Assembly: GCA_038248565.1 (NCBI GenBank)
Contig: JBBRXH010000001.1
Span: 1 to 33,048, forward strand
From: Peptostreptococcales bacterium
GTDB taxonomy: Bacteria; Bacillota; Clostridia; Peptostreptococcales; Anaerovoracaceae
DNA length: 33,048 bases
Direction: 5' to 3'
Every line of letters starts with the position of its first letter. The first letter of the stretch is position 1. Position numbers and translations under genes: made by a program. Shown here one piece after another: positions 1 to 29,142 of this stretch. Under the pieces are notes generated by a model. That model saw only the letters and a list, made by a program, of their open reading frames with translations, searched no databases and was not told the DNA's origin.

Positions 1-1285
1 CATCGCAGAAACCGGTCCCTCTTCGATGGATATGAATACGCTATGGGGCGCAGAGGAAGACATCCGCTCTTTAAAATCCCTGATTCTATTCGGGCTTCGC
101 GGTATGGCGGCTTATGCCCATCATGCACTGATTCTCGGTTATTCAAATGACGAAGTCAATGCATTCTTCTGCAAAGGATTAAAAGCATTGGATGAGAACT
201 TGTCTGCCGACCAGCTTCTTGCAATGGTACTTGAACTGGGTCAGGTAAACTTAAAATGCATGGCTCTTCTTGACGAAGCCAACACGACAACCTATGGAAC
301 TCCGGTTCCTACTCCCGTAACGACAAATATCGAGAAAGGCCCTTTTATCGTCGTTTCAGGTCATGATCTTCATGATCTTCAGCTTCTTTTAGAGCAGACC
401 GAAGGAAAAGGCATTAACATTTATACCCACGGTGAAATGCTGCCTTGCCACTCTTATCCGAAGTTAAAAGCTTTCACCCATCTTAAAGGCAATTTCGGTA
501 CTGCCTGGCAGAATCAGCAGAAGGAATTCATCGATCTTCCGGCTCCTGTCTTATTCACCACAAACTGCATTATGCCTGTTAAGGATAATTATAGAGACCG
601 CATATTCACCACGGAACTGGTGGCTTATCCGGGCATGGTTCATATCGGCGAGAAAAAAGATTTCTCCCCGGTCATCGCTAAAGCACTTGAACTCGGCGGA
701 TACCCGGACGGCAGAAAGATGACAGGAATTAACGGTGGAGACAAACTGATGACCGGTTTTGGCAGAGGCACCGTCCTTGGCGCTGCTGATATTGTGGTTG
801 ATGCAGTAAAAAAGGGTGCTATTTCACATTTTTTCCTGGTGGGCGGTTGCGATGGTGCTAAACCGGGTAGAAACTACTACACCGAGTTCGTACAAAAGTC
901 TCCAAAGGATTCCATCATTCTGACCCTTGCCTGCGGCAAATTCAGATTCAATGATCTTGCCCTGGGAGAAATCGGCGGGCTGCCACGTATCATGGATATG
1001 GGCCAGTGCAATGATGCCTACAGTGCTATAGAAGTTGCCTTAGCCTTAGCCAACGCTTTTGAATGCGGTGTGAATGATCTTCCTTTGACCCTTGTACTAT
1101 CCTGGTATGAACAGAAAGCCGTCGTCATACTCCTGACGCTTCTATCACTGGGCATTAAGAACATTTTGATAGGGCCAACACTACCGGCATTCCTGTCTCC
1201 CAATGTGCTGGGCATTCTGGTTGACAACTTCAATCTGACTCCGATATCTACTCCGGAGGAAGACCTTAAAAAGATTTTAGGTTAA
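1..1285 (+). CDS. hcp: Hybrid-cluster protein / hydroxylamine reductase Hcp, C-terminal ~420 aa (5' end lies outside the window)
   Basis: ORF 26..1285 stays open back to base 2. The translation carries Hcp-typical blocks: FIVVSGHDLHDL, INIYTHGEMLP, GNFGTAWQNQ, LFTTNC, FFLVGGCDGA, TLACGKFRF, MGQCNDAYSA. Confidence 0.9.
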   Translation, partial: IAETGPSSMDMNTLWGAEEDIRSLKSLILFGLRGMAAYAHHALILGYSNDEVNAFFCKGLKALDENLSADQLLAMVLELGQVNLKCMALLDEANTTTYGTPVPTPVTTNIEKGPFIVVSGHDLHDLQLLLEQTEGKGINIYTHGEMLPCHSYPKLKAFTHLKGNFGTAWQNQQKEFIDLPAPVLFTTNCIMPVKDNYRDRIFTTELVAYPGMVHIGEKKDFSPVIAKALELGGYPDGRKMTGINGGDKLMTGFGRGTVLGAADIVVDAVKKGAISHFFLVGGCDGAKPGRNYYTEFVQKSPKDSIILTLACGKFRFNDLALGEIGGLPRIMDMGQCNDAYSAIEVALALANAFECGVNDLPLTLVLSWYEQKAVVILLTLLSLGIKNILIGPTLPAFLSPNVLGILVDNFNLTPISTPEEDLKKILG

Positions 1286-2006: not shown

Positions 2007-3923
2007 TCACCCCCTTTCCCTAAAATGTACACCGGGTTTTCTGATATTATCCTGCCTCTCTGTCACACCGATACTGTCCAAATATTCCAAAAGTGTGATG
2101 GCAGCCTTTCGGCCAATAAACAGGGTATCCCTGATTTCTCCGGCAGTGATGCTGCCCTGACTTTCCAGCAAAGCTCTGATTTTTGAAACCGCAGGATAAA
2201 AGTTGGCTTCATGGAGGCAAAGTCCGTTTCCCAAATTCACCGCCTGGCCAGACTGAATCAAAAATCTCTCAACATCCTCAAATAGCTGGATGGGCATAGA
2301 AAGAACCCTGGCAAGCTGATCCGGAGTCCTTAGGGCAAATCCTTCTTCTTTAAGCAGCCCATTGACTCTCTGAGTCTCTTTTTTGCCGCTGATTCTTTGT
2401 ATTGACTGGTTTCCCGGCTGCATCAGGTGATTTCCCCAAGGCGCAAGAACACCGGTCTCGACCAGATGATTTATAATGGCATTGAAATCTTTTTGTTCAA
2501 GAGATTTGAAAACCTCACTCTTTATTTGTTCCCTGGGAAGCAGATAGCTAAACGGGTTTTTAAAATAAAAATCAGCGAATGTTTCATCAATTTTTTGTAT
2601 ATACCAGTCAAGGGAATTTATACTGAGATATTTATCCGGTGCCTCCAGATAGATAAGTTCCCCGCTATCAGTCAGTGCTAGCATTACGGTCTGCAGCAGC
2701 GTCTCATCTTCATAGAGTTCCCTGTAAATATCTGCGAGGTTTGCAAGCCTTCCCTTTTGATCAAACAGGTGCCCGATCACCTGCTTCAAGTTCCCGTGGG
2801 CACCAATATCCAATGCGGAAATACTCTCCTCCGAAAACCTTTTTCTATTTTTTGTTTTATGATAGAGGACTTCTCCGCCGCCCAAGATAGTCATGGGAGA
2901 ATAGGCTCTGACTATAAAACGGTCCCCTCTAAGCGCCACGACAGGTTCTTCGAATCTAAGCTGAGCGTAACCGGAACTGTTTTCCGGTATCTGGTCACCC
3001 CCTAAAAGGCGCACCCTGGCCAGCACTTCCTTGGATCCAATATGGACATGGACCCGCTGGTTATGCTCTATTCCGCCTTTTCCCCCAGTACTGTAAAGAA
3101 TGACATCCACCAGCACCTGGACATCCACTGTATTTTTTCGGGTAATCACATCTCCTCTTTGAAGCTGAGACTTTTCAATGCCTGAAAGGTTAAGGGCGCA
3201 GCGGTCGCCGGCAGAAGCCTGTTCTACCTGCTTGTTATGAACCTGAATTCCCCTGACCTTGGCTGAAATTTTTTGAGGCAGGATATCCACGTTGTCCCCC
3301 TTACCGATAAAACCGCCGTGGATAGTCCCCGTAACAACGGTACCATGCCCCGTTATGGTAAATACTCTATCGACGGGCAACCTAAAAAGCCGCTGAGCAT
3401 TCCGCTCCGCAGCCTCCCCTGTCAGTTTTTCCAGACAGTCAATAAGTTCATCTATGCCGCTTCCTGTTAATGCAGAAATCGGTATGATAGATATTCCCTC
3501 AAGGGTAGTCCCTTCCAGCAGCTTTTTAATTTGAGAAGTGGCTATAGCCAATTCTTCTGTGCTGACCAGCTCGCATTTGGTCAGGGCTACAACCCCTGAA
3601 TTCACTTTAAGTATAGACAGGATTTCCAGATGTTCCCTAGTCTGAGGCATGATGCCCTCATCCGCAGCGATGACCAGGGTCACAAAATCGATCCCCGTAA
3701 CACCTGCTACCATGGATTTTATAAACTTTTCATGGCCTGGCACATCCACGATGGAAATAACATTGCCGGAGGGCAAAGTCAGGGGTGCGAAACCAAGCTC
3801 GATGGTCATCCCCCTGCGCTTTTCTTCCTCCAGTCTGTCTGTATCCACACCGGTCAGTCTTTTGACCAAAGTAGTCTTTCCATGGTCGATATGGCCAGCG
3901 GTACCCATGACGACGTGTTTCAT
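2007..3923 (-). CDS. selB: Selenocysteine-specific translation elongation factor SelB
   Basis: 638 aa. N-terminal GTPase motifs GHIDHGKTTL, DVPGH and long winged-helix C-terminal domains. The start overlaps the selA stop as ATGA. Confidence 0.95.
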   Translation of the reverse strand: MKHVVMGTAGHIDHGKTTLVKRLTGVDTDRLEEEKRRGMTIELGFAPLTLPSGNVISIVDVPGHEKFIKSMVAGVTGIDFVTLVIAADEGIMPQTREHLEILSILKVNSGVVALTKCELVSTEELAIATSQIKKLLEGTTLEGISIIPISALTGSGIDELIDCLEKLTGEAAERNAQRLFRLPVDRVFTITGHGTVVTGTIHGGFIGKGDNVDILPQKISAKVRGIQVHNKQVEQASAGDRCALNLSGIEKSQLQRGDVITRKNTVDVQVLVDVILYSTGGKGGIEHNQRVHVHIGSKEVLARVRLLGGDQIPENSSGYAQLRFEEPVVALRGDRFIVRAYSPMTILGGGEVLYHKTKNRKRFSEESISALDIGAHGNLKQVIGHLFDQKGRLANLADIYRELYEDETLLQTVMLALTDSGELIYLEAPDKYLSINSLDWYIQKIDETFADFYFKNPFSYLLPREQIKSEVFKSLEQKDFNAIINHLVETGVLAPWGNHLMQPGNQSIQRISGKKETQRVNGLLKEEGFALRTPDQLARVLSMPIQLFEDVERFLIQSGQAVNLGNGLCLHEANFYPAVSKIRALLESQGSITAGEIRDTLFIGRKAAITLLEYLDSIGVTERQDNIRKPGVHFRERG

Positions 3924-5389
3924 CGCTCTGCTCCTAAAATATCAGCTATTGCGCATGCGACTAATTTATAATCATCCGGGTCAATAGTCCTCACATTCAG
4001 CAGGAGGGTATCCTGATGAATGCGGCATAAAATCGGTATAGTGTATTTTCTCAAACTTTCCTGTAGTTTGTCCAGACTCATGTCCTGTGGTGCAAGGGAT
4101 ACAGCTCTGCCAGGCAGCAGGACACCAGGCAGGGAGCCTCCGCCAACCTCATCCAGCTCCTCCACAATACCAATATCAGCTATACTGCCATTCTCCAGCC
4201 TGCCCAAGCCAATGGTCTGAATCAGACAATTCTTTATCATTTCAGCTAAGGCTTCAGCCCTGATTTCCAGTTCTTCCGGCTTTAATGCCATCATTTTCAG
4301 TACCGGGATATGAAACGCCACTGAGTTTTCATTTAAATAAATCTTTAATACCGAAGTCAGCGCAGCAAAGGTCATCTTGCAGGGCCTTACCATGCGAGCC
4401 AGAGGATTTGCCTTTATCCGGTCGATGAGGTCTTTTTTGCCTGCAATAATTCCCGCCTGAGGGCCGCCAAGGAGCTTGTCTCCACTGAAGGTGACGAGAG
4501 AAACCCCCCTTTTGATGCTGTCCTGAACCGTCGGTTCATAGGGTAGCCCTATTGACCTTAGGTCAATGAGACTGCCGCTGCCTAAATCTTCTACGACCAG
4601 GAGCCCCTTTTTTTGGGCAAGATCGACCAGGATTTCAAGGTCAACACTTTCGGCAAAACCGGTTACCCTATAATTGCTGGTATGCACCTTAAGTAAAACT
4701 CGGGTGTCCTGAGTGATCGCCTTCTCATAATCTTTAAGATGGGTCTTGTTGGTCGTGCCGATCTCCACCATCTTGGCCCCGCTGCCGGAGATAAGATCAG
4801 GAATGCGAAAGCTGCCGCCTATTTCAACCTGCTGGCCTCTGGAAACGATGACCTCCCGGGCCTGGGCCAGGGTATTGATGCACAGGAAAACCGCGGCTGC
4901 GTTATTGTTCACAACCAAAGCACTTTCGGCTCCTGTCAGCTCTTTAATCAGAAATTCAGCCTGGGAATGTCTGTAGCCTCTTCTTCCGGTTTCAAGATCA
5001 TACTCCAGATTGCTGTAGCCTTCTGAAACAGCAGATACCGCCGCTACTGCCTTCTGTGGCAAAGGCGCTCTGCCAAGGTTGGTATGGAGCACGATGCCCG
5101 TAGCATTGATGACCCTGCCCAGCTCCTGGCGGCTTTCTTTAGCAAGGGCTTCGATAATGCGGCTGGCTATAAACCCCGGCACCTCTTCTTTAGATTTAAT
5201 CCCTTTAGTTTGGCAAAAATCCGGATGATCTCCGGCCTCCTGCTTAAAAATTTCCAGCACTAATTTTGAAGTGCGAAGGACGGCTTCTCTGCCTTCCCCC
5301 AGCACGTAACCGGATAGGGCTTCCGCTTCAAGGATTTTATTGATGGGAGGAATAGCCCGTAGGGCCTCTTTACTGCTCATTTGGTTCAT
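3920..5389 (-). CDS. selA: L-seryl-tRNA(Sec) selenium transferase SelA
   Basis: 489 aa from the ATG at 5389, preceded by AGGAGG. The longer 5479 start of the track would overlap selD by 77 nt. SelA-typical blocks are present: NATGIVLHTNLGRAPL, NNNAAAV, FSGDKLLGGPQAG (PLP Lys). Confidence 0.95.
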   Translation of the reverse strand: MNQMSSKEALRAIPPINKILEAEALSGYVLGEGREAVLRTSKLVLEIFKQEAGDHPDFCQTKGIKSKEEVPGFIASRIIEALAKESRQELGRVINATGIVLHTNLGRAPLPQKAVAAVSAVSEGYSNLEYDLETGRRGYRHSQAEFLIKELTGAESALVVNNNAAAVFLCINTLAQAREVIVSRGQQVEIGGSFRIPDLISGSGAKMVEIGTTNKTHLKDYEKAITQDTRVLLKVHTSNYRVTGFAESVDLEILVDLAQKKGLLVVEDLGSGSLIDLRSIGLPYEPTVQDSIKRGVSLVTFSGDKLLGGPQAGIIAGKKDLIDRIKANPLARMVRPCKMTFAALTSVLKIYLNENSVAFHIPVLKMMALKPEELEIRAEALAEMIKNCLIQTIGLGRLENGSIADIGIVEELDEVGGGSLPGVLLPGRAVSLAPQDMSLDKLQESLRKYTIPILCRIHQDTLLLNVRTIDPDDYKLVACAIADILGAER

Positions 5390-5402
5390 AGTGAACCTCC
5401 TA

Positions 5403-6467
5403 CTATAAAACCTTAATAGCGATGTTGCTGCCTTCTTCTTTTGCAAAAACTTCGCCGATAATAACTGCCCTGCTCTCATTTCCGGAGTTAATCTCAGCCA
5501 TCAGTTCATCAGCTTTTTCATGTGGAACAGAAATCAGGAGCCCTCCGGATGTCTGGGGATCAAACAAGGCAATGCGAAGGGTTTCTGAAACCGCCGCATC
5601 AAAGGCTATCAGATCCTGAAAATACTTCCTGTTGGCAAAGGCGCCTCCGGGTACGGCTTCCCGCTCAATTAGCGCCAGCACCCCGGCCATGACGGGCACC
5701 TTTTCCCTATTTATCCGGATTACAACCTTGCTGCCATTAGCCATTTCACAGCCATGACCCAAAAGACCAAAGCCGGTGACATCGGTGCAGGCGTTTACGC
5801 CTACCCGCTGCATGGCTTCGGACGCGGCCCTATTCAGGGTCGCCATATTGGTGGTCGCCTCTTTTGTTTCGGCTTCGGAGATCATATCGAATTTAAAGGC
5901 TGTGGTAATGATGCCCGTGCCTATGGGTTTTGTCAAAATAAGAAGATCTCCCGGTTTAGCCCCGGAGTTGGTCACCACCTTGTCTGGGTGGATCGTTCCT
6001 GTCACTGATAAACCGTATTTGATTTCCTCATCGGTGACCGTATGACCCCCGAGAAGAATTGTTCCTGATTCTTTGATTTTATCCTCGCCACCCTTAAGTA
6101 TCTCAACCAGAATATTCGGATCAAGGCTGCAGGAAAAGCAGGCGATAGATAGCGCTGTCAATGGCTTTCCGCCCATGGCATAAATGTCGCTGAGAGAATT
6201 TGCCGCCGCAATCTGGCCATATAAAAAGGGATCATCCACAATCGGCGTAAAGAAATCCACCGTCTGCACCAATGCAATATCAGGGGAAATCTGATAGACG
6301 CCTGCATCGTCGGACATATCGAAGCCAACGAGTAGGTTTGGATCTCTGTTATCTGTGTTTTTATCCAGGTGACACAAAACTTGTGCCAAGTCCTCAGGAC
6401 CAAGCTTGCTGGCTCAACCAGCCTTTGAAGACATATGGGTCAGTCGCCTGATTTGCTTGTCTGTCAT
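5403..6467 (-). CDS. selD: Selenide, water dikinase (selenophosphate synthetase) SelD, Sec-containing form; UGA at codon 18 (6414..6416)
   Basis: The track ORF 5403..6389 starts at an artificial TTG. Reading upstream in frame gives MTDKQIRRLTHMSSKAG-U-ASKLGPEDLAQVLCHL, which aligns to the E. coli SelD loop RLTQYSHGAGC(17)GCK. The ATG at 6467 follows GGAGAGGAGGGA. Length (1065 nt) is in frame. Confidence 0.93.
6385..6413 (-). promoter_or_regulatory. Possible SECIS region downstream of the selD UGA (structure not clear-cut)
   Basis: GCCAGCAAGCUUGGUCCUGAGGACUUGGC can form an outer stem GCCAG/UUGGC (includes one G-U pair) and an inner stem GGUCC/GGACU around a UGA triloop. This is a hand fold only and is weaker than the HesB-like hairpin. 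Confidence 0.25.
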
Positions 6468-6493
6468 AAGATCCCTCCTCTCCTAAAGTTTGT

Positions 6494-6590
6494 TGGCGGG
6501 AGTGTGTAGGAGTTGAACCCACCTCGGATGGTCATGCCACCCGACTACGGATTTGAAGTCCGAGGAACCCACCAGGACCCATCCACCCCC
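6494..6590 (-). tRNA. selC: tRNA-Sec (anticodon UCA), 97 nt including encoded CCA
   Basis: The minus strand GGGGGTGGAT...CTTCAAATCC...CCCGCCA folds by hand as follows:
- an 8-position acceptor stem (7 pairs plus one G-A);
- a 6-bp D stem with the 4-nt loop TGGT;
- anticodon loop CUUCAAA (UCA at 6554..6556);
- an 8-bp long variable arm;
- a 5-bp T stem with TTCAACT.
These are hallmarks of bacterial tRNA-Sec. Confidence 0.93.
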
Positions 6591-6644
6591 ATGGTTTTAT
6601 TATATCTCATTTTAAGAAAACGAAATAGCTCTGATAAACGAATT

Positions 6645-9420: not shown

Positions 9421-10857
9421 CTATGCTTCAAAATTAAACTTTAACTTGGGATTTCTTGCGGCATTCACCTCGTCCGGCCTTGTCACCGCCTTTGTGATCG
9501 GAGCATTCTTAATGATTTCGGGGTTTTCTATTGCAGTTTTATAGATCTTTCGGTATGCTTCGGCAGCCTCATCCAGAACATCTATGCTTTCCGTCTCAGT
9601 TGGTTCGATCATCAATGCTTCGTGGACGATCATGGGAAAATACATCGTAGGCGGATGCATGCCACTGTCCAGAATAGATTTGGCAATATCCATGGCAGTT
9701 ATCCCATGGGACTTTTTTAGCTCTTCAATACTGATGACAAACTCGTGCATGCATGGGTCCTTGTAGGCAACCTCATAAAGATCTGAAAGCCTTTTCATCA
9801 GATAATTTGCATTGAGTACAGCATTTTGAGAGGCTTCCAAAATACCTTCATGGCCAAGGGTTTCAATGTAAGCAAGGGCTCTTACCACGACAAGAAAGTT
9901 GCCATAAAAGGCTTTGAGCCTACCGATGCTTTCCGGAAGGTCGTCATCAAAACTATAGCTCGCATTTTTTGCGTAATAAGGACGGGGTAAAAATTTCGCC
10001 AGTCTTTCCTTGCAGCCAACGGGGCCGCTTCCTGGTCCACCACCGCCATGAGGCGTCGAGAAAGTCTTGTGCAGATTCAGGTGAATCACGTCAAATCCCA
10101 TATCCCCAGGACGTACGATGCCCATGATCGCATTGAGATTTGCGCCATCATAGTATAAAAGCCCGCCCGCATCATGAATGATTTTAGCAATTTCTTCAAT
10201 ATTCTTTTCAAAAAGGCCCAAGGTATTGGGATTGGTAATCATAAGCCCTGCGGTGTCATCGCCTACGACTTGCTTTAGTTTCTCCGTATCCACATAGCCG
10301 GAACTGGTTGAAGGAACGGTGATCACCGTAAAACCAGCCATGACCGCACTGGCAGGATTCGTACCATGGGCAGAATCAGGTATTATGATTTTGTTGCGTT
10401 TTTCATCATTTCTTGATTTATGGTAAGCTTTGATCAGCAGCAAACCCGTAAATTCTCCCTGGGCTCCCGCTGCAGGCTGAAAGGTCATGTGGTCCATTCC
10501 CGTAATTTCGCAGAGCCGTTCCTCTGCAAGGCATAGCACCTCAAGACAGCCCTGAACCGTGTGTTCAGGCTGCAGTGGATGAATTCCCGAGAATCCTTCA
10601 TAAGCAGCTATTTTCTCATTTACCTTTGGGTTGTATTTCATCGTGCAGGACCCCAGGGGATAGAAGCCATTATTTAGGCCATAGGTCCTGTTTGCAAGCT
10701 CTGTATAATGCCTGGCCAAATCCGTTTCCGAGATTTCAGGCAGTCTCAATGGAGTTTTTCTCCTAAATTTTTCCGGCACCGTTCCGTGAGTCAATTCGCA
10801 TTTTCCCAGGATTTGGGAGCCTCTGCCTTCGCGGCTTTTTTCAAACAGCAGTTTCAT
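9421..10857 (-). CDS. gcvPB: Glycine dehydrogenase (decarboxylating) subunit 2
   Basis: 478 aa with the typical LNLHKTFSTPHGGGGPG PLP-Lys block. The start lies 1 nt after the gcvPA stop. Confidence 0.95.
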   Translation of the reverse strand: MKLLFEKSREGRGSQILGKCELTHGTVPEKFRRKTPLRLPEISETDLARHYTELANRTYGLNNGFYPLGSCTMKYNPKVNEKIAAYEGFSGIHPLQPEHTVQGCLEVLCLAEERLCEITGMDHMTFQPAAGAQGEFTGLLLIKAYHKSRNDEKRNKIIIPDSAHGTNPASAVMAGFTVITVPSTSSGYVDTEKLKQVVGDDTAGLMITNPNTLGLFEKNIEEIAKIIHDAGGLLYYDGANLNAIMGIVRPGDMGFDVIHLNLHKTFSTPHGGGGPGSGPVGCKERLAKFLPRPYYAKNASYSFDDDLPESIGRLKAFYGNFLVVVRALAYIETLGHEGILEASQNAVLNANYLMKRLSDLYEVAYKDPCMHEFVISIEELKKSHGITAMDIAKSILDSGMHPPTMYFPMIVHEALMIEPTETESIDVLDEAAEAYRKIYKTAIENPEIIKNAPITKAVTRPDEVNAARNPKLKFNFEA

Positions 10858-10858
10858 T

Positions 10859-12184
10859 TTAGATCGCCCCCTTTAGAATACCGACCAGTTCGTCAATTTC
10901 AGCCTTAGTATTTACCTCGGTGACGCACCAAAGGATGCCGCCATTTTCTTCTTCTTTAAGCGGATAGCCCCCTAAGATGCCTCTTTCCTCAAGCCTCGAC
11001 ATGAGATCTTCATAAGGGAGTGGGCATTTTGTCACAAACTCATTGAAGAAGTCGCCTTTATATTCGAGTTCAAATCCAGCTATCTTAGAAATCTCCGAAG
11101 CCGCATATTGGGCTTTGGCCATGCAGTGATCGGCTACCTCAGCTATGCCTTTCGGCCCCATAGCAGCCATATAGGCGGAAGCCGTCAGAGCGCATAGTGC
11201 TTGGTTGGAGCAGATGCTGCTGGACGCCTTTTCTCTTCTGATGTGCTGCTCTCTCGCCTGAAGTGTCAGCACGAAGGCTCTTTTCCCGTTTGTATCCACC
11301 GTCTCTCCCACAATTCTTCCCGGAAGTTTTCTTGTCATGGATTCCCTGCAGGCCATGAACCCCAGATAGGGACCTCCGAAGGCGAGCTTCATGCCAAGGG
11401 GCTGCCCTTCTCCGACGGCGATATCCGCATCCCATTCGCGGGGAGTCTTTAGGATTGCAAGGGAAATCGGGTTGACGCCCATAATATATTTAGCAGAAGC
11501 TTTATGGGTTATTTCTCCTATTTTAGCAGCATCCTCCAACAGCCCATAATAATTCGGCTGCTGAACATAGACGCAGGCAACACTATCGTCAAGAGACAGC
11601 GCAAGCACATCTATATTCGTCAATCCCTCTTTTTTGGGGATGATGACCACTTCCATACCCGATGCTTCGCAGTAGGTTTTGACCACCTGAATCGTCTGGG
11701 GATGAACTGCCGCCGATATAACCACCTTGTTTTTACCCCGGTCCCTGCACATCAGGGCCGCCTCGGCAGCTGCTGTTGCACCATCATAAACTGAAGCATT
11801 AGAAACATCCATTCCGGTCAATTCACAAATCATAGTCTGATATTCAAAAATAGACTGCAGCAAACCCTGACTTATTTCTGCCTGGTAAGGGGTATAAGCC
11901 GTCACAAATTCTTCTTTGGCAGCGATATGCTTTACCACAGAAGGTATGTAGTGATTGTAGGCGCCCGCTCCTCTGAATAGGGTTTTAAAGACGGTATTTT
12001 TTGCTGCTAGGGCTTCCATTTTACTGCAGACATCCATTTCCGAAAGTCCACTCGGAATGCCGAGGGGCCTGTTAAGTTTGACCTTCTCCGGAATGTGGGT
12101 GAAAAGATCATCCATGGTTTTCTTTCCGATAAACGCCAGCATTTTTTGCCTTTCAGCGGCTGAAGACGGCACATAAGTCCCCAT
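10859..12184 (-). CDS. gcvPA: Glycine dehydrogenase (decarboxylating) subunit 1
   Basis: 441 aa. YIPSVVKHI and TAYTPYQAEISQG blocks typical of the P-protein alpha subunit. Confidence 0.95.
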   Translation of the reverse strand: MGTYVPSSAAERQKMLAFIGKKTMDDLFTHIPEKVKLNRPLGIPSGLSEMDVCSKMEALAAKNTVFKTLFRGAGAYNHYIPSVVKHIAAKEEFVTAYTPYQAEISQGLLQSIFEYQTMICELTGMDVSNASVYDGATAAAEAALMCRDRGKNKVVISAAVHPQTIQVVKTYCEASGMEVVIIPKKEGLTNIDVLALSLDDSVACVYVQQPNYYGLLEDAAKIGEITHKASAKYIMGVNPISLAILKTPREWDADIAVGEGQPLGMKLAFGGPYLGFMACRESMTRKLPGRIVGETVDTNGKRAFVLTLQAREQHIRREKASSSICSNQALCALTASAYMAAMGPKGIAEVADHCMAKAQYAASEISKIAGFELEYKGDFFNEFVTKCPLPYEDLMSRLEERGILGGYPLKEEENGGILWCVTEVNTKAEIDELVGILKGAI

Positions 12185-12186
12185 TG

Positions 12187-12567
12187 TTATACCTCTTTCT
12201 CTACCAATTCTTCGTAGTCTTCTGCTGACAGCAACTCCTGCATTTCGGTGATATCGCTGATCTCTGCGATCCAGGAGTCATAAGGCGCATTATTTAGAAG
12301 TTCCGGTGAATCCTGCACCTCCGTGTTTACTTTTGAGATAATGCCGGCCATTGGGCTGAAAATGTCGGAAACAGCTTTTACAGACTCTACGTCGGCAATG
12401 TTGTCCCCGATGCCAATTTTGAGACCCTCGCTTTGGATGTTGACAAATACTACGTTTCCCAAATTATGCTGCGCGAAATCCGTAATGCCTATGATAGCCG
12501 TATTTTTGTCGATTTGTCTCACCCATTCATGATCCTTGGTGTACTTGAGTTCTTTTGGAATGTTCAT
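12187..12567 (-). CDS. gcvH: Glycine cleavage system lipoyl carrier protein H
   Basis: 126 aa from the ATG at 12567 (GGAGGAAAT upstream, 1 nt after the gcvT stop). YTKDHEWV motif and lipoyl-lysine context VESVKAVSDI. Confidence 0.93.
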   Translation of the reverse strand: MNIPKELKYTKDHEWVRQIDKNTAIIGITDFAQHNLGNVVFVNIQSEGLKIGIGDNIADVESVKAVSDIFSPMAGIISKVNTEVQDSPELLNNAPYDSWIAEISDITEMQELLSAEDYEELVEKEV

Positions 12568-12568
12568 G

Positions 12569-13666
12569 TTAATTTCCTCCTTGGTTTTTTTTATAAAACG
12601 GCAGTTTGACAATCTCTGCAGAAATCATTCTGCCCCTAACATCTATTTGAAGAACTGTGCCTAATGCGCTATGGGAAACATCTATAATAGCCATGGCAAT
12701 GGCATAATTGAGATAGGGCGCATAGGTCCCCGATGTGGTGATGCCGATTTCCGCATCATTAAAATAGACCTTGGCTCCTTCTCTTACGATACCCCGATCG
12801 ATCACCTTAAGGCCGATCCGTTTTTTGCTTACAGATATTTTTCTGGCTATGGCACTTTTACCGATAAAGCCTTGCTTGTCCATCTTTACAAATGGCCCCA
12901 GGTCCGACTCCAGTGGTGTAAACTCGTCGTTCATCTCATGGCCATAAAGAGGCATGGCCGCCTCAAGCCGAAGGGTATCCCGGGCCCCAAGTCCTGCGGG
13001 GATCAGTCCGAATTCTTCTCCTGCTTCAAGAAGGCTATCCCAGAGCTTCGGCGCATCAGCGGGTTTGCAGTAAATCTCAAAGCCATCCTCTCCCGTATAT
13101 CCGGTTCTGGAGACTATGCACTCAAAGCCGGCCACATTGGCTTTTGGAATAAAGCTGTAATATTTTGTAGGAATCTGCTGTTCTACCATAAGTTTTTTTA
13201 GAATATCCAAAGACCTCGGTCCCTGAAGGGCTATCTGTGCGAAGTCATCGGACACATCTGAAAACTCGACGTCTCCAAAAATATTCTGTTTTATCCAGCT
13301 TACATCTTTGTTTCTATTGGAAGCGTTGATTACAAGCATATAGTCCTCTTCTCCACTTTTATAGACCAGCAGGTCATCGACGATGCCTCCTTCAAAATTA
13401 CACATCGGACTATAGCGGACCTGACCATCAATCATAGTCTGAAAGTCATTCGTAAGCAGATATTGGAGATTCGCAAGGGCGTCCTTTCCTTTTAATATGA
13501 CCTCTCCCATATGGGAAACATCAAAGAGTCCCGCTTTGGTGCGCACTGCATTATGCTCCGCAATAACCCCGGTCTCATATTGTACCGGTAGCAGATAACC
13601 GGCAAAGGCGACTATTTTGCCTCCGCACACGACATGATTCTGATACAAGGGTGTTTTTAATTCCAT
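12569..13666 (-). CDS. gcvT: Aminomethyltransferase (glycine cleavage T protein)
   Basis: 365 aa. [16 protein letters not shown] and [12 protein letters not shown] blocks. Confidence 0.95.
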
Positions 13667-13695
13667 GACTATGCCTCCTTATTTCTTAGCTTTAA

Positions 13696-14535
13696 TCACA
13701 TACCTGCGTGGTATGAACTTCTCACCAAGGGCCCGGACATGACATTTTTAAAGCCCATTGATAAGGCGATTTCACGATATTTCTTAAACAGATCCGGATG
13801 GATATAGGCAATGATCGGATAATGATCCTTAGATGGCGCCAGGTATTGGCCCATGGTCAGAAAATCACACCCGACCTTTCTCAGGTCCCCGAGAACCTCT
13901 AAAACCTCTTCAAATTCTTCGCCAAAACCCAGCATGATACCTGATTTTGTGATAATAGCGGAATCTTTGCTCCTGACCTTTTTTAGGAGCTCCAAAGAGC
14001 GCTCATAGCCAGCCATGGGTCTTACCCCAGAGTATAACCTGGGAACGGTCTCGATATTGTGGTTGATAATATCCGGACCGGCGCAGATTACTGTATTAAG
14101 GGATTCCGTATTCCCTTTAAAGTCCGGAATCAGTACCTCTATGGTCATATCTGGATTTATTTTCCTTGCCGCAAGGATAACCTGGGCGAAATGCCCTGCG
14201 CCGCCATCAGCCAGATCGTCTCTGGTGACAGAAGTGACGACTAAATGTTTAATGCCCAACGCTTTTGCCGCCTCAGCGACTTTTGAAGGTTCCTGCGAAT
14301 CTAAAGGCGTGGGCGACCCTTTGGTCACAACGCAAAAGCTGCAATTTCTTGTGCAGACATTTCCAAGAATCATAAAGGTTGCCGTCTTTCGGTTAAAACA
14401 CTCCATCCGGTTAGGGCAGTTGGCCTCTTCACAAACCGTATTCAGATCAAATCTGCGGAGTACCTTTTTCACCTCTCCGGAAATTTCGCCGCCTTCTATT
14501 TTAATTTTCAGCCATTCCGGCTTTCTCAGATACAT
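13696..14535 (-). CDS. lipA: Lipoyl synthase (radical SAM)
   Basis: 279 aa. N-terminal [12 protein letters not shown] cluster and radical-SAM CTRNCSFC motif. RBS GAGGAG. Confidence 0.95.
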
Positions 14536-14556
14536 ATCCCTGCTCCTCTTTCAATG

Positions 14557-14609
14557 AGTTAAAAAGACCAAATTAGTTAAAAAGACCATAATTTTAGTTA
14601 AAAAGACCA
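14557..14609. repeat. Three direct copies of a 14-nt unit AGTTAAAAAGACCA (minus strand TGGTCTTTTTAACT)
   Basis: Exact copies at 14557..14570, 14575..14588 and 14596..14609. The third copy encodes the last residues and stop of lplA (GLFN*). The other two fill the lplA-lipA spacer. Confidence 0.85.
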
Positions 14610-15577
14610 AAAATCAGGTCATCCAGCGTAATGGCGGAAAGATACCTTCCCACATCGCAATCCTTCAGGGTTTTTCGCACATCTTCCTCCGAATACCTGA
14701 TTCCCTTGAGCTTGCTTTCCAGCTCGGAGGTCTCCAGTTCACCGAAGAAATCGCCAAACAATTTTATATCTTTAATGACGCCTTTTTCAATATTCAGGTT
14801 AAACTCTACTATGCCGCCGTCGAATTTTTTTGTATTGGAAAAAGAATACTTTGGGAAATGGCCAAAATTCCATTCCCAGCTTGCATATTTTTCCGTTGCT
14901 ATCTTATCGATCCTTACCAGGTCATTTTGGGAAAAACTATAAACCTCAGTGATGTCGTAAGACTCCATGACCTTCCGCTTTAAGAAGTCTTTAAATTCAA
15001 GGACGGTCATCGGAGATTTTAGGTGGCTTCCTATGTTAGTCACGCGGCTGAAAACAGACTTGACGCTTTTATACTGAAATTTGATGGGATCAGGTTTAAG
15101 CGCCGCTGACAGATTCGTCAGATTGCCTGAAAACAGCAGAGTTCCATGGTGAAGCAGTCTGTTTTTATAAAGATATTGGGCATTGCCCGAGAATTTTTTG
15201 CCTTCGATGGTGATATCATTACGGCCTGAAAATTTGGCTTCTATTTCCAGCTTCTTTAAGACTTCTATGATGGGCGCCGCGAATTTTTTGAAATTGATGA
15301 CTGCATCATTCTCCTTGTTCGTAATAAAGGTAAAGTTAATGTTGCCCATATCATTAAAAACAGAACCTCCGCCAGTGATCCTTCTCGTTATTTTGATGGC
15401 GTTTTCTTTCACATACTCCATATCGATTTCCGAATAGGCATTCTGATTTTTCCCGATCAATACACAATGCTCACTTTGCCAAAGCATGAAGAACTCATCC
15501 TGTGAATTTTTAAGCAGGTATTCTTCGATGGCATGATTGACGCAGGGATCTGTGCTTTTTGACTCTATATAGAACAT
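14594..15577 (-). CDS. lplA: Lipoate-protein ligase A
   Basis: 327 aa from the ATG at 15577 (AGGAGGAG upstream). The longer 15655 start would run through the riboswitch terminator. RRITGGGSVFND and GKKFSGNAQ (lipoyl-AMP Lys) blocks. Confidence 0.9.
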   Translation of the reverse strand: MFYIESKSTDPCVNHAIEEYLLKNSQDEFFMLWQSEHCVLIGKNQNAYSEIDMEYVKENAIKITRRITGGGSVFNDMGNINFTFITNKENDAVINFKKFAAPIIEVLKKLEIEAKFSGRNDITIEGKKFSGNAQYLYKNRLLHHGTLLFSGNLTNLSAALKPDPIKFQYKSVKSVFSRVTNIGSHLKSPMTVLEFKDFLKRKVMESYDITEVYSFSQNDLVRIDKIATEKYASWEWNFGHFPKYSFSNTKKFDGGIVEFNLNIEKGVIKDIKLFGDFFGELETSELESKLKGIRYSEEDVRKTLKDCDVGRYLSAITLDDLIFGLFN

Positions 15578-15596
15578 ACTATCTCCTCCTGAATAC

Positions 15597-15626
15597 AAAA
15601 AAGCAGAAAGCATTAATGCCTTCTGC
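15597..15626 (-). terminator. Intrinsic terminator, expression platform of the glycine riboswitch
   Basis: Minus strand GCAGAAGGCA-UUAA-UGCUUUCUGC forms a 10 bp stem (one G-U) followed by UUUUUUG. Its 5' flank overlaps the CAGAG 3' strand of aptamer-2 P1. Confidence 0.8.
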
Positions 15627-15793
15627 TCTGTTATGAACCTGAGAGATTCTTTCAATCACTTGAAATTGCCCCGTCGGTGCTTGCGCTTTCCAGAGTTTTG
15701 TCCAATCACGGTCCATTTACCTGAGATCATCGCTGATAGTATGGCTACCTATCAGTTTATTCCTTCGGCGCTGCTTTTAGCAGACTCTCCCGC
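15626..15793 (-). promoter_or_regulatory. Tandem glycine riboswitch (two aptamers)
   Basis: Aptamer 1 on the minus strand reads GCGGGAGAGUCUGCUAAAAGCAGCGCCGAAGGAAUAAAC...AUCUCAGGUAAAUGGACCG. Aptamer 2 reads CUCUGGAAAGCGCAAGCACCGACGGGGCAAUUUCAAGUGAUUGAAAGAAUCUCUCAGGUUCAUAACAGAG. Both carry the GGAGAG/CUCUGGA, CNCCGAAGG/CACCGACGGGGCAA and CUCAGG consensus blocks. Confidence 0.88.
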
Positions 15794-15826
15794 AATCTTC
15801 ATCCAAATGATTTATTCATTTGGCTA

Positions 15827-21664: not shown

Positions 21665-22636
21665 ATGAGTTTTTTTAAACATGAGCATACTATTAAAGCC
21701 AAGGACGAAGCATCCGACTACCAGGTTCGGCTTATGCAGGAGGACGGTTCGCCCGGACCCCTTACCAAAATCGAACGGCTAAATCTGACAAATGAAGAAT
21801 GGCAAAAAAGACTTACCCCGGATGAATTTAAGGTACTTAGAGCCCAGGGAACGGAACCTGCATTTTGCGGTCTTTTGACCGATGAGAAAGAAAACGGCGT
21901 TTATTTCTGCGTCGGCTGTGGTCTGCCGCTTTTCAGTTCAGAGGCCAAATTCCATTCAGGTACAGGCTGGCCCAGCTTTTTTAGTCCCTTTGCCCCGGAA
22001 AATATTATCGAGAAATCCGATATCAGCTTTGGCATGGTCCGTACCGAAATCCTCTGCACACGCTGCGGCAGTCACCTTGGTCATGTATTCACAGATGGTC
22101 CAAAACCAACAGGGCTGCGTTACTGTCTTAACTCCCTGGCTCTTAAGTTTATGCCAAGTGTCAAAACCCAGCAAGCGACTTTTGCTGCAGGCTGTTTCTG
22201 GGGCGTTGAAAGCGATTTTCGTAAAATCCCGGGTGTTTTGGATGTCCTCTCCGGCTACACCGGCGGCCATACGGATAATCCAAATTATAAGGAAGTCTGC
22301 ACCGATAAAACCGGTCATGCGGAAGCAGTTCTCGTTACCTTCGACCCGGTTAAAGTCTCCTTTGAACAGCTTCTGTCTGCCTTTTGGCTGCTCCATGATC
22401 CAACCCAGTTCAATCGTCAGGGGCCTGACTATGGTTCCCAGTACCGCTCGGCGATTTTTACCCATACCGAGGATCAGAAAGCACTGGCAGAAAAATCACG
22501 GGAAGCTATGAATGCATCCGGCCATTATAAAAAACCCATCGTTACCGAGATAACACCCGCCAGCCACTTTTGGCCTGCAGAAGATTACCATCAGCGCTAT
22601 AATGAGAAACATGGCGGCGGTAGCTGTCATATTTAA
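21665..22636 (+). CDS. msrAB: Bifunctional peptide-methionine sulfoxide reductase, MsrB (N-terminal) fused to MsrA (C-terminal)
   Basis: 323 aa.
- MsrB half: CVGCGLPLF...[12 protein letters not shown] zinc motifs and the catalytic RYCLNS.
- MsrA half: the catalytic GCFWG and GYTGG.
RBS AAGGAGG. Confidence 0.92.
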
Positions 22637-23328: not shown

Positions 23329-24237
23329 TCATCCAATTGTCACTCTATTTTTCCCGGATTGTTTGCTTTTATACATCAGATCATCCGCTCTTTTAATTAT
23401 GCTTTCAGGGTTGTCCTCCGGCAATGCCAGGGTAACTCCTATTGAAACCGTGACATGAATTTCTTCACTACCGTTTCTAATCCTAGACTGTTCAACAAGA
23501 ACTCTCATCTTTTCTGTCACAGATTGAATGCCTGCAGTATCCACGCTTGAGAATACGGCGACAAACTCCTCGCCGCCCCAGCGGCCCACTACATCCTGCC
23601 TACGAAGATTCGCTTCGAAGGTTTTAGCCACCATTTTAAGGACTTCATCTCCCGCATCATGGCCGTAGATGTCGTTGACACCTTTAAAGTTATCGATGTC
23701 CATGAAGGCAACGCCAAAAGATGTCCCCAGTTCATCGTACTCAATTTTCTTTGCTTCCAGCACTGCCTTGATATATCTCCTGCTTGATATTCCAGTTAAA
23801 GCATCCTCAGTGGCTTCTTTTTTATATTGTTCAAGACTGTTCAAAATCTGAACTTTATTTTTGTCGTCGACAAAGATCTCCGCCGCGCCTATTATCTCAC
23901 CGTTGTCATCATACATCGGCAGTGTCTTGATTGCTACCGGAACGCGATAACCCTTTTTATGCTGCAGAAATACCCTCGCTTCCCTTATAACTCCGTCACC
24001 TATAGTCCCATGTAGTGGGCAACCTATGAGACACAGCTGATTTCCTTGATCATCCACATGGTTTAGAATGTTTTCATAGCATTTCCTCCCGACCACTTCA
24101 TCCGCCGTGAATCCTGTAATCTTTTCTGCTCCCTTATTCCAGGACGTGATCGTTCTTTCAGTATCGACAAAATAAATCCCTTCATAAAGAAATTCCAGCA
24201 TTTTTTTATAGTCTTTATCAATTACGCGTATTGTCAT
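23329..24237 (-). CDS. PAS-domain diguanylate cyclase (GGDEF)
   Basis: 302 aa. N-terminal PAS (WNKGAEKITGFTADEVVGRKC). Intact GGEEF active site preceded by an RRQD I-site (RxxD five residues upstream). Confidence 0.9.
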   Translation of the reverse strand: MTIRVIDKDYKKMLEFLYEGIYFVDTERTITSWNKGAEKITGFTADEVVGRKCYENILNHVDDQGNQLCLIGCPLHGTIGDGVIREARVFLQHKKGYRVPVAIKTLPMYDDNGEIIGAAEIFVDDKNKVQILNSLEQYKKEATEDALTGISSRRYIKAVLEAKKIEYDELGTSFGVAFMDIDNFKGVNDIYGHDAGDEVLKMVAKTFEANLRRQDVVGRWGGEEFVAVFSSVDTAGIQSVTEKMRVLVEQSRIRNGSEEIHVTVSIGVTLALPEDNPESIIKRADDLMYKSKQSGKNRVTIG

Positions 24238-24512
24238 TATTATAATCCCCTTTAATAAATTTTTAGAAAAGTCTTTAAATATGGATCGTACCGGCCCTTA
24301 TACCTACGATGATTGTATTATACAATATTATTTACAGATTATGTCGCTTTTTCCTTTGACAATTGCTATAATTACCTGTAATTATATTTGATTTTGAATT
24401 AGAGCGAATCATTATGCTTCAGGCGAAATAGAATAGAGGCCCGTGTAGATTAGATTGTTATTTGAGTATATAATATTTATGATAAATATTATAAGACTGG
24501 GGGGCGCATAGG

Positions 24513-25814
24513 GTGTTAAGGGATTCAAATCTTAATGTTAATGAAAAGGATGATTTTATCAGCAGCTTTTTTACCACCGGGCTTGCTCAAATTAGGATCG
24601 TATCAATCGTTTTTATTTTTCTGTTTCTGGCGGATGGTTTGCTTAGCGCGAAGCCAATGCAGAATGAATCTATATTTTTCGCAGTTCGCTACTACACACT
24701 CATTCCCATTATGGCACTCGTCATTGGGCTAAGTTTCACCAAGTTTTTCGTCCGGATCAGTCAGCCGATCATGCTTTTCGCCTTTATAATTTCAGGTTGC
24801 GGCGTAGCTACACTTCTGATTTTAGATCCTACTGATCAGGTACTGCTTGGTCTTTTAATTCTTGTTGAGCTTGCAGGGTTTCTATTCATTCGGCTCAAGT
24901 TTCAAAACGCAGTTATTGGTGGCATTGCCATTTTTGTATTCTATATATTTGGAATTTTCGAATTTACGAAATTGGCTCCGTTGTATGTTCTCCCAATGTT
25001 CATTCTTTTAACAGGTGCTATCATCATTGGTTCTTTCGGTAATTATTTTATAAATAGCTCTGAACTAAGAAACTATCTCATGAAGAAGCAATATTTGACC
25101 GATAAAAAGCGTCAGGAAAAAATAATGTCCGAAAAGGTTAAAGAGATATCAGACTCCCAGACCGTAACTATATTTGCCCTTGCAAAGCTTTCAGAATCAA
25201 GGGATAAGGATACAGGGAATCATATCGAAAGAGTTGGGAAGTATTGTCTGCTACTGGCCTCTAAAATAGAAAACAAAGAATATGAGAAAAGAAATTTAAC
25301 CAAAGAGGATTTCATAAGCAGGATAGAGCTCGCCAGTGCACTGCATGATATCGGCAAGGTTGGTATCGGAGATTCCATATTGATAAAACCCGGGAAGCTG
25401 AATGCCGAAGAGTTTCAAATCATGACCTGCCATACGCTGATTGGCAGCAATACACTTGATGAAGTGCGTAAAAAGTATCCAAACAACTCATTTATCAATA
25501 TGGGCATCGAGATTACAAGGTGTCATCACGAAAGGTTCGATGGCACTGGTTATCCCCATGGCTTAGTTGGAGAACAAATACCGCTTTCTGCCAGAATAGT
25601 AGCCATTGCAGATGTTTATGACGCCTTAATCAGTACAAGACCTTATAAGGATCCATACCCTCACGAGCGGGCTATGGATATCATTGTCAATCTCTCCGGC
25701 TATCAATTCGATCCGATGCTGATTCGGATATTTGAAAAGTGCAATAAAGAAATTAAAAGTATCGCCTATGGCCACCAGCACTCATTTCGGATTTTAGAAG
25801 ATGACTTGGAGTGA
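24513..25814 (+). CDS. Membrane-anchored HD-GYP domain protein (putative c-di-GMP phosphodiesterase)
   Basis: 433 aa with a GTG start. About 6 hydrophobic segments in the first 180 aa, then HDIGKVGI, HHERFDGTGYP and ADVYDAL motifs. Confidence 0.85.
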   Translation: MLRDSNLNVNEKDDFISSFFTTGLAQIRIVSIVFIFLFLADGLLSAKPMQNESIFFAVRYYTLIPIMALVIGLSFTKFFVRISQPIMLFAFIISGCGVATLLILDPTDQVLLGLLILVELAGFLFIRLKFQNAVIGGIAIFVFYIFGIFEFTKLAPLYVLPMFILLTGAIIIGSFGNYFINSSELRNYLMKKQYLTDKKRQEKIMSEKVKEISDSQTVTIFALAKLSESRDKDTGNHIERVGKYCLLLASKIENKEYEKRNLTKEDFISRIELASALHDIGKVGIGDSILIKPGKLNAEEFQIMTCHTLIGSNTLDEVRKKYPNNSFINMGIEITRCHHERFDGTGYPHGLVGEQIPLSARIVAIADVYDALISTRPYKDPYPHERAMDIIVNLSGYQFDPMLIRIFEKCNKEIKSIAYGHQHSFRILEDDLE

Positions 25815-25815
25815 T

Positions 25816-28800: not shown

Positions 28801-29142
28801 CCATGTAACGAAATAGCAACTTTCGGGAGAATAGGCTTTTATTTTATAGTATCTATTCAGGGTCTCTGAATACTGTATGAATTCTTTCTCCTGTCCCCCT
28901 AATGCTACATCGCCATAGAAGCTGATCCAGTCAAACTCATCTTTCCTGATATTTGGTATTACATCTGTAATTCTTTTACCTACAATCTCATTCCCTTTAA
29001 GCCCTGTAAATAGTTCAAAGGCTTCATTGACCTCTAAGTATTCGTAGTCGCAGGGGATACCTTCAGCGTCGCAAATAATCCTGTGGTAGGCAAACCCAAT
29101 CGGTGATTCTTTAATAAGTTTTTGATAGAGATACTCATTCAT
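25816..29142 (-). CDS. Multi-PAS (about six PAS/PAC modules) - GGDEF - HD-GYP hybrid c-di-GMP signalling protein
   Basis: 1108 aa.
- Repeated PAS-type blocks up to about residue 765.
- GGDEF at residues 847-851 (26590..26604), preceded by an RSDD I-site.
- C-terminal HD (MHDIGKIGI) and HQEKWDGTGYP.
RBS AAGAGGAAAG. Confidence 0.9.
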   Translation of the reverse strand: MNEYLYQKLIKESPIGFAYHRIICDAEGIPCDYEYLEVNEAFELFTGLKGNEIVGKRITDVIPNIRKDEFDWISFYGDVALGGQEKEFIQYSETLNRYYKIKAYSPESCYFVTWFTDISEEKIRLLELEKIENRYKNVIAGANVGTWELNAQTGEEVINERWAEMIGYTIEELSPLSIDTWRKNSHPEDMIRVQIDIDQLFENIKEQYDIEFRMKHKDGHWVWINGRGRVNTWTPDGKPLMTSGTHTDISDKKQLEADLLKNQNLLKQTEMAGKIGGFQFNTQTFDQTWTEETFRILEIDTTHGEPKVPEGIDFIAPPYRAMALEGIDRAIRFGESYNQVWEVITALGNSRWVQSIGNPIGEDGIVKYIQGSFQDITERVEAEKMLIQSEEKFRMLFDKAPLGYQSLDIDGCFIDVNQQWLTMLGYDRDEVIGKWFGDFLSPLYQDGFRKRFPLFKAQGHIHSEFEMVHKNGEKLFIAFDGKIGYNEGGEFKQTHCILKDITIQQQLEIELAQNRELMKSLLDNTTDAIYIKDTSGKYLLFNKGAEKVVGKTAEEVLDKDDMALFPAHEAKAVMAGDQKVLEARETMTYEEAVTDASGNTTSFLSTKGPVFNKDNELIGLFGIARNITERKQLELNLHNKTKLLEATLMSVGDGVISCDKNGAILLINPAAENLTGWVEEEAKGKSIEEVFNVVNEVTGEKSQNIAEKVIRSGKIQELENHTILVSKNGIRRPIEDSAAPIVQENGENAGVVIVFKDCTERLEKIEAIKHLSYHDYLTGLYNRRFFEEELSRYDTPRNMPITIVMADVNGLKLINDSFGHDVGDELLRKAAKAISDGCRSDDIVARLGGDEFVIILPKTDSTEAENLINRIQSNLLEYRVGNIALSISFGYETKKSEAQDIRELLKLAEDHMYRHKLYESASMRSQTINLIMGTLYEKNNREMNHSKRVGDLCELLAKHLGYSWDDVNQIRIAGLMHDIGKIGISDNILNKAGKLDESEWEEIKKHSEIGYRILSSVNEFSEIAEYVLQHQEKWDGTGYPKGLKNDQISMQARIISVADAFDAMTGERAYGSLLSETEAADEIRRCAGTQFDPKIAKVFVEKVLGKIW

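Follow-up and report, generated by a model that had tools for sequence, protein, structure and literature searches.

A predicted selenoprotein SelD in a Peptostreptococcales sel cluster, annotated too short at an in-frame UGA with conserved tandem hairpins behind it

The selD gene carried by a contig of a Peptostreptococcales bacterium is, as sequence and comparative evidence lead us to conclude with great confidence, a selenoprotein gene that has been called too short in databases. In the 33,048-nucleotide stretch of DNA analysed here (contig JBBRXH010000001.1, assembly GCA_038248565.1; hereafter the window), direct reading places the start codon ATG of the full-length frame at 6467..6465 (-) and its stop codon TAG at 5405..5403, and the sole internal stop in the translation from 6467 to 5403 is the TGA at 6416..6414, which forms codon 18 and is read here as a predicted selenocysteine (Sec) codon (Table 1). 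Because the Sec UGA halts gene callers, the database entry of this protein (P0001) is without the catalytic N-terminal loop that the corrected gene model includes, and so are the entries for most of the closest relatives.

Table 1. Positions of the sel genes, the predicted recoding signals and further features in the window
Feature	Position	Strand	Evidence or remark
selB, Sec-specific elongation factor	2007..3923	-	TIGR00475, 373 bits
selA, L-seryl-tRNA(Sec) selenium transferase	3920..5389	-	TIGR00474, 556 bits
Full-length selD (selenide, water dikinase), predicted	5403..6467	-	354 codons including Sec18; translation, TIGR00476, PDB
Hairpin H2, UGGCACAA-GUU-UUGUGUCA	6370..6388	-	overlaps codons L-A-Q-V-L-C-H
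Hairpin H1, GGUCC-UGA-GGACU	6389..6401	-	12 nt past the UGA; overlaps codons G-P-E-D-L
In-frame TGA, predicted Sec codon, residue 18	6414..6416	-	alignment to E. coli Cys17; TGA/TGY in relatives
Shine-Dalgarno region of selD, AGGAGAGGAGGGA	6472..6484	-	purine-rich; GGAGG core 6 nt 5' of the ATG
selC, tRNA-Sec, anticodon UCA, CCA end encoded	6494..6590	-	ARAGORN
Promoter-like site TTATCA-17-TAAAAT, 5' of selC	6609..6637	-	consensus scan, 9/12 matches
PAS-GGDEF protein	23329..24237	-	
HD-GYP-like HD_5 protein	24513..25814	+	
Multi-PAS GGDEF and HD_5 protein, 1108 aa	25816..29142	-	

The mechanical open reading frame (ORF) for selD begins at a TTG at 6389 and comprises 328 aa, while the database entry P0001 (324 aa) begins another four codons 3' of this position. 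An earlier note on this DNA, made from the sequence alone, had proposed that the frame extends upstream through the TGA, with a gain of 26 codons over the mechanical start, to an ATG with a strong Shine-Dalgarno sequence 3' of the tRNA-Sec gene. Direct reading of the frame agrees with this proposal in both respects, and the positions of the start codon and of the Shine-Dalgarno sequence are conserved in relatives. The 17 codons 5' of the TGA encode MTDKQIRRLTHMSSKAG, so that full-length SelD is predicted to begin with the peptide MTDKQIRRLTHMSSK and to give rise to the Sec-bearing tryptic peptide AGUASK. The end of the tRNA-Sec gene is separated from the selD ATG by 26 nt, and a tblastn search found a single selD copy within the window. 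As TGA is the normal stop of 11 of the 28 supported ORFs in the window, the code is standard, and reading through codon 18 would require site-specific recoding.

Judged by its similarity to known proteins, the added upstream sequence is genuinely the N-terminal part of SelD. When the protein, with Cys written for U at residue 18, was searched against the PDB with phmmer, E. coli SelD (3u0o; E 5e-69) was matched at its N-terminus by residues 6-27, with U18 opposite Cys17 and K21 opposite Lys20, and SelD from Aquifex aeolicus (2yye) was matched from residue 10 onward (E 4e-76). The NCBIfam selD equivalog TIGR00476 covers residues 8-318 from model position 1 onward with 389 bits (cut-off 125), and NF002098 is matched with 327 bits (cut-off 299). 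The assignment of RLTHMSSKAG-U-ASK to the catalytic glycine-rich loop of SelD in the earlier note, with Sec falling on E. coli Cys17, is borne out by both phmmer and TIGR00476, and alignment with Sec-type and Cys-type SelD proteins likewise reveals an extension that is similar to SelD N-termini.

We gathered 93 related loci from the genome-collection matches listed (at most 68% identity) and from exact-protein look-ups, the latter supplying the closest relatives. The homologous codon could be located in 86 loci, a count that predates the Cys-type loci L091-L093; it is TGA in 74 of the 86, well beyond what chance would produce, and TGC or TGT in the other 12, and the Cys-type set employed below for folding and pairing tests comprises 15 genes (these 12 and L091-L093). 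TGA-type loci were found in Bacillota, Chloroflexota, Acidobacteriota, deltaproteobacterial groups and others. In a protein search, the closest homologues fell into two length classes: proteins of 322-333 aa, to which P0001 belongs, begin right behind the UGA, and proteins of ~352-357 aa are full length and bear Cys or W at the Sec site. The closest Cys-type homologue, P0006, is 73% identical (...RLTHMSSKAGCASK..., containing SSKAGCASK), and both P0006 and another Cys-type protein, P0056, have a flanking peptide identical to that of the window SelD. A W residue is found at the Sec position in P0008, P0009 and P0012 (SSKAGWASK), evidently through a gene caller using another translation table, which adds a second type of misannotation to truncation. 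The nearest named SelD among the matches listed is that of Clostridium homopropionicum, with 68% identity.

The upstream peptide [M/L]TDK..[K/R/I]RLT[H/Q]MSSKAG is retained among the closest relatives, which range from 85% to 68% in identity, and changes in the 17 upstream codons among them are more often synonymous than non-synonymous. Each of these loci has a start codon and a Shine-Dalgarno sequence in unchanged position; the latter position is kept in L081, L084, L090, L087, L088 and L089. The gene for P0006 lies at L091:718-1782 (JGI 3300063112), on a 2.9-kb contig, and encodes the same N-terminal peptide with TGC at the Sec site. This Cys-type selD is flanked by EamA-family and CsoR-like repressor genes, as in the lineage of the window, and its contig is without tRNA-Sec, selA and selB; it looks like the gene of a relative that lost its Sec-decoding genes and retained SelD with a U-to-C exchange. 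Locus L092 is also Cys-type, yet it has retained selC, selA and selB.

The genes for tRNA-Sec, SelA, SelB and SelD are all present within one cluster of the order selC-selD-selA-selB, with selC first (2007..6590, -). Rfam RF01852 places the tRNA-Sec at 6498..6590 with 69.6 bits, compared to a gathering score of 47. Residues 10-480 of SelA correspond to positions 1-452 of the 455 positions of TIGR00474, and the selA ATG at 5389, which lies 13 nt past the selD stop, is preceded by its own GGAGG; the mechanical selA ORF (3920..5479, -) opens at an ATG at 5479 inside selD, and the family model fits the ATG at 5389. The selB start overlaps the selA stop (ATGA at 3920..3923), and SelB contains the Pfam domains GTP_EFTU, Beta-barrel_SelB, SelB-wing_2 and SelB-wing_3, the last two being winged-helix domains of the type that binds SECIS elements. 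A tRNA-Sec gene is also located 5' of selD in L001, L081, L084, L087-L090 and L092, and the closest relatives are syntenic with respect to the sel cluster and its neighbours, genes for an EamA-family protein and an O-acetylhomoserine sulfhydrylase on the opposite strand. As no terminator-like site was found between selC and selD, we infer that the two genes are co-transcribed. A perfect TATAAT lies 5' of selC at 6599..6604, and a consensus scan yielded a promoter-like site further upstream (Table 1); the number of such sites in the region does not exceed that in shuffled sequences, and the site at 6609..6637 is at best a weak candidate for the selC promoter.

When other long frames interrupted by TGA were scanned across the window, no credible selenoprotein gene was found. 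Although the organism is predicted to decode Sec and some Clostridia have Msr enzymes of the selenoprotein type, the MsrB-MsrA fusion encoded in the window (SelR and PMSR domains; 21665..22636, +) has an uninterrupted frame, making it a Cys-type enzyme. An operon at 9421..15655 (-) encodes lipoate-protein ligase, lipoyl synthase, GcvT, GcvH, GcvPA and GcvPB, and on its 5' side lies an aptamer of the glycine riboswitch family (RF00504, 54 bits; 15699..15802, -), which was detected as a single aptamer as compared to the common tandem pair. A c-di-GMP signalling gene cluster occupies 23329..29142 (Table 1). The hydroxylamine reductase (hybrid-cluster protein) encoded at 26..1285 (+) is matched from model position 135 onward only, indicating that the gene is cut by the start of the window.

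The earlier note had found no SECIS obvious by eye downstream of the UGA. Indeed, the predicted fold of a 66-nt region at the UGA is unremarkable when the sequence is considered on its own, with a stability not beyond that of shuffled sequences (z = -0.02), which accounts for the earlier reader having seen no such element. A candidate element is nevertheless present, in the form of two conserved tandem hairpins, H1 and H2, that become apparent upon alignment. Counted from the UGA, H1 spans +13..+25 and H2 spans +26..+44. H1 consists of a 5-bp stem with a terminal G-U pair and a 3-nt UGA loop located 17 nt past the Sec codon, with a folding energy of -4.1 kcal/mol. H2 consists of an 8-bp stem and a 3-nt GUU loop located 33 nt past the Sec codon, with a folding energy of -7.0 kcal/mol as a bare 19-mer and of -7.7 kcal/mol with flanking bases; it is more stable than expected from shuffling (z = -3.5), with 2 of 200 shuffles equally stable. 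The combined fold of both hairpins has an energy of -12.3 kcal/mol. A nested lower-stem fold around H2 (-15.6 kcal/mol; GUCC..AGG with CCU GGAU) was considered and rejected as the conserved structure, as its 3' arm is lost in the closest relatives.

RNAalifold yielded no consensus structure for the 66 Sec-type sequences or for the 33 from Bacillota, and we therefore counted pairs in the named structure instead; Mariotti et al. (PMC4561486) likewise obtained no consensus across the full prokaryotic set. Pairs were counted in a gapless alignment anchored at the UGA that comprised 66 distinct Sec-type sequences, including a Bacillota subset defined by taxonomy (n = 33), and were compared to controls in which the pairing partners were displaced by 1-3 columns. 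Across all 66 sequences, 73% of the cells were paired, compared to 28-51% with slid partners, and the covariation score was 0.276, compared to at most 0.149 with slid partners; none of 500 shuffles attained the observed pairing and covariation values. Pair 18-26 of H1 covaries (UA in 35 and GC in 6 sequences), as do pair 33-43 of H2, which occurs as GC, CG, AU, UA, GU and UG, and pair 36-40 of H2 (GC in 22 and AU in 21 sequences). The Bacillota subset showed 82% paired cells (84% in H2) and a covariation score of 0.312, compared to at most 0.134 with slid partners, with covariation in H2 pairs 30-46, 33-43 (GC, AU, CG, GU and UA) and 36-40 (AU in 13 and GC in 11 sequences). In the 15 Cys-type genes, 59.5% of the cells were paired (53% in H2), and the slid controls gave almost equal values.

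We also compared the stability of each hairpin to that of 300 synonymous recodings per sequence, drawn according to the codon usage of the respective gene. Among these recodings, the Sec-type hairpins ranked at median percentiles of 0.05 (H1) and 0.11 (H2) and the Cys-type counterparts at 0.29 (H1) and 0.55 (H2), and the two types differed with Mann-Whitney p values of ~1e-4 for H1 and ~4e-3 for H2. From these sequence comparisons, pairing is conserved beyond the demands of the encoded peptide G-P-E-D-L-A-Q-V-L-C. The corresponding percentiles for the window selD alone (0.07 for H1, 0.06 for H2) are suggestive but not decisive, and it is the comparative evidence that carries the argument. Cast as a covariance model, the 54-nt element had the selD site as its sole match in the window; in out-of-sample scoring, the medians of ~35 bits for Sec-type and ~22 bits for Cys-type genes separate the two types only in part, because coding conservation dominates the model. 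In selD genes from Moorellaceae, Chloroflexota and deltaproteobacterial groups, H1 is strong and H2 is weak or absent, suggesting that the working element may vary by lineage.

Bacterial SECIS elements are described by a consensus model (bSECIS) that is said to be due to Zhang and Gladyshev in 2005. As quoted in PMC13188914, this model specifies an apical loop of 3-9 nt that begins 16-37 nt past the UGA, an upper stem of 4-16 bp, a G within the first two loop positions that is usually followed by G or U, and a minimum free energy not above -7.5 kcal/mol. H2 agrees with three constraints of the model, namely loop and stem size, a G-U-U loop and a spacing of 33 nt; its energy is borderline, as the choice of boundaries moves it between -7.0 and -7.7 kcal/mol, on either side of the cut-off of -7.5 kcal/mol. 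The geometry of H1 is also compatible with the model, its U-G-A loop having a G followed by A, and its energy here is too weak. In supplement S6 of PMC4561486, the selD bSECIS was modelled with RNAz; in Clostridiales selD, stem2 appears to lie on the 3' side of stem1, and stem2 alone fits the bSECIS model. The arrangement of H1 and H2 is this published Clostridiales stem1/stem2 layout.

Two readings of the UGA would dispense with Sec. Were it a true stop, SelD would have to start downstream, at TTG 6389 or TTG 6377, or selD would be a pseudogene, and the upstream frame would represent a relic or a leader peptide. Gene callers do pick a downstream TTG in the window and in many relatives (P0001-P0005), and a GAGGA is located 5' of both TTG codons; however, its spacing is poor, with gaps of 1 nt and 13 nt to the two codons, and the truncated SelD would be devoid of the loop with Sec/Cys17 and Lys20 that matches the catalytic loop of solved structures. 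A true stop is also difficult to reconcile with upstream codons, a start codon and a Shine-Dalgarno sequence that are kept with synonymous variation, and with a UGA and downstream hairpins that are conserved across phyla; we consider this reading extremely improbable. Hardly more credible is a decoding of the UGA as Trp, Cys or Gly, be it by a reassigned code or by SECIS-independent near-cognate read-through. It could draw on the W residues in entries P0008, P0009 and P0012, but these are best explained by the translation table of the gene caller, and it is at odds with the standard termination at TGA of well-supported ORFs in the window, with the dedicated tRNA-Sec, selA and selB genes that flank selD and with conserved hairpins that make sense for SelB-dependent recoding alone. 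Minor, low-level near-cognate read-through could occur at the UGA and might help to bootstrap the Sec system.

If Sec is inserted, as we conclude, the question is which hairpin SelB binds, and we favour H2 as the probable SECIS, with its GU loop, its 8-bp stem and its rich covariation in Bacillota. It is conceivable, though rather unlikely, that SelB instead binds H1 and that H2 is accessory or unrelated. H1 has an E. coli-like spacing, following the UGA after 12 nt, compared to ~11 nt for the SECIS of E. coli fdhF; it exhibits the stronger contrast between Sec-type and Cys-type genes and is the strong hairpin in Moorellaceae, Chloroflexota and deltaproteobacterial selD. Against such a role, H1 of the window is predicted to fold with merely -4.1 kcal/mol and a terminal G-U pair, its UGA loop departs from the G[G/U] that the bSECIS model expects, and the stem that by itself fits this model in the Clostridiales of Mariotti et al. 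(PMC4561486) is the downstream one. A further reading, which we regard as doubtful, treats the tandem as a distinct two-part signal, in which H1 would provide spacing or a ribosome pause and H2 would tether SelB, with roles shifting by lineage; the dominant hairpin appears to be H1 in Moorellaceae, Chloroflexota and deltaproteobacteria, but H2 in Bacilli and in Clostridia. This two-part reading also invokes coupling at the selC-selD junction, the 26 nt of which could link 3' processing of the tRNA-Sec to the 5' end of selD and its translation.

With H2 as the favoured SelB site, we envisage the following course of events. Translation of selD would start at the ATG at 6467, directly after the short spacer behind tRNA-Sec, and SelB, in complex with GTP and Sec-tRNA(Sec) and tethered to a downstream mRNA stem-loop, would insert Sec at the UGA of codon 18. 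The recoding signal would be formed by the two adjoining hairpins, in which H1 may have an auxiliary part; in other lineages, H1 may be the principal element. The product would be a SelD of 354 residues with the catalytic N-terminal loop SSKAG-U-ASK. Selenophosphate, which SelD would make from ATP and selenide alongside AMP and Pi, would be used by SelA to charge tRNA(Sec); as this charging needs selenophosphate, synthesis of SelD would rely on its own product, and this self-dependence may have regulatory consequences. The deduction of a positive-feedback dependency, made in the earlier note, is valid, although the idea is not new. The 1996 paper first reporting a Sec-type selD reportedly named an autoregulatory loop in its subtitle, and the feedback is said to have been under discussion since.

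The underlying biology is already well described, the window harbouring what we take to be an ordinary Sec-type selD with a tandem-stem SECIS of the published Clostridiales type (PMC4561486). Among the selenoprotein families of prokaryotes, SelD ranks second in how widespread it is (PMC13188914). Mariotti et al. (2015; PMC4561486) reported that ~19% of the SelD genes in prokaryotic reference genomes encode Sec, "always in the same position", and that selenoprotein genes are usually misannotated owing to the UGA. The comparison of Sec-type and Cys-type genes at synonymous sites illustrates such a case cleanly.

E. coli SelD (3u0o) aligns with the window SelD over residues 6-327, and both proteins carry the motifs RLT..S..AG-[C/U]-..K, DDA, DFF.P, N..SD..AMGG.P and TDVTGFGLLGH. 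The E. coli loop reads AG-C-GCK, whereas that of the window SelD is predicted to read AG-U-ASK; E. coli SelD thus has Cys rather than Sec at the catalytic position, its gene is without a SECIS, and its Cys19 corresponds to Ser20 in the window SelD. As to the recoding signal, the SECIS of E. coli fdhF and H2 are both stem-loops within the coding region soon after the UGA, with a small apical loop that has G then U, and the loop context of H2, CAAGUUUUG, presumably resembles that of fdhF, CAGGUCUG. The two differ in the distance of the GU loop from the UGA, which is 33 nt for H2 and ~20 nt for fdhF, and in the intervening space, which is taken up by the separate hairpin H1 in the window selD and by an enclosing lower stem in fdhF. 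Compared to Sec-type SelD proteins of other bacteria (Haemophilus influenzae, Aquifex aeolicus, Clostridiales; PMC4561486), there is no substantive difference; as here, these have the UGA at the Cys17 position in an N-terminal Gly-rich loop, belong to the AIRS/AIRS_C fold family, have neighbouring sel genes and are routinely annotated in truncated form.
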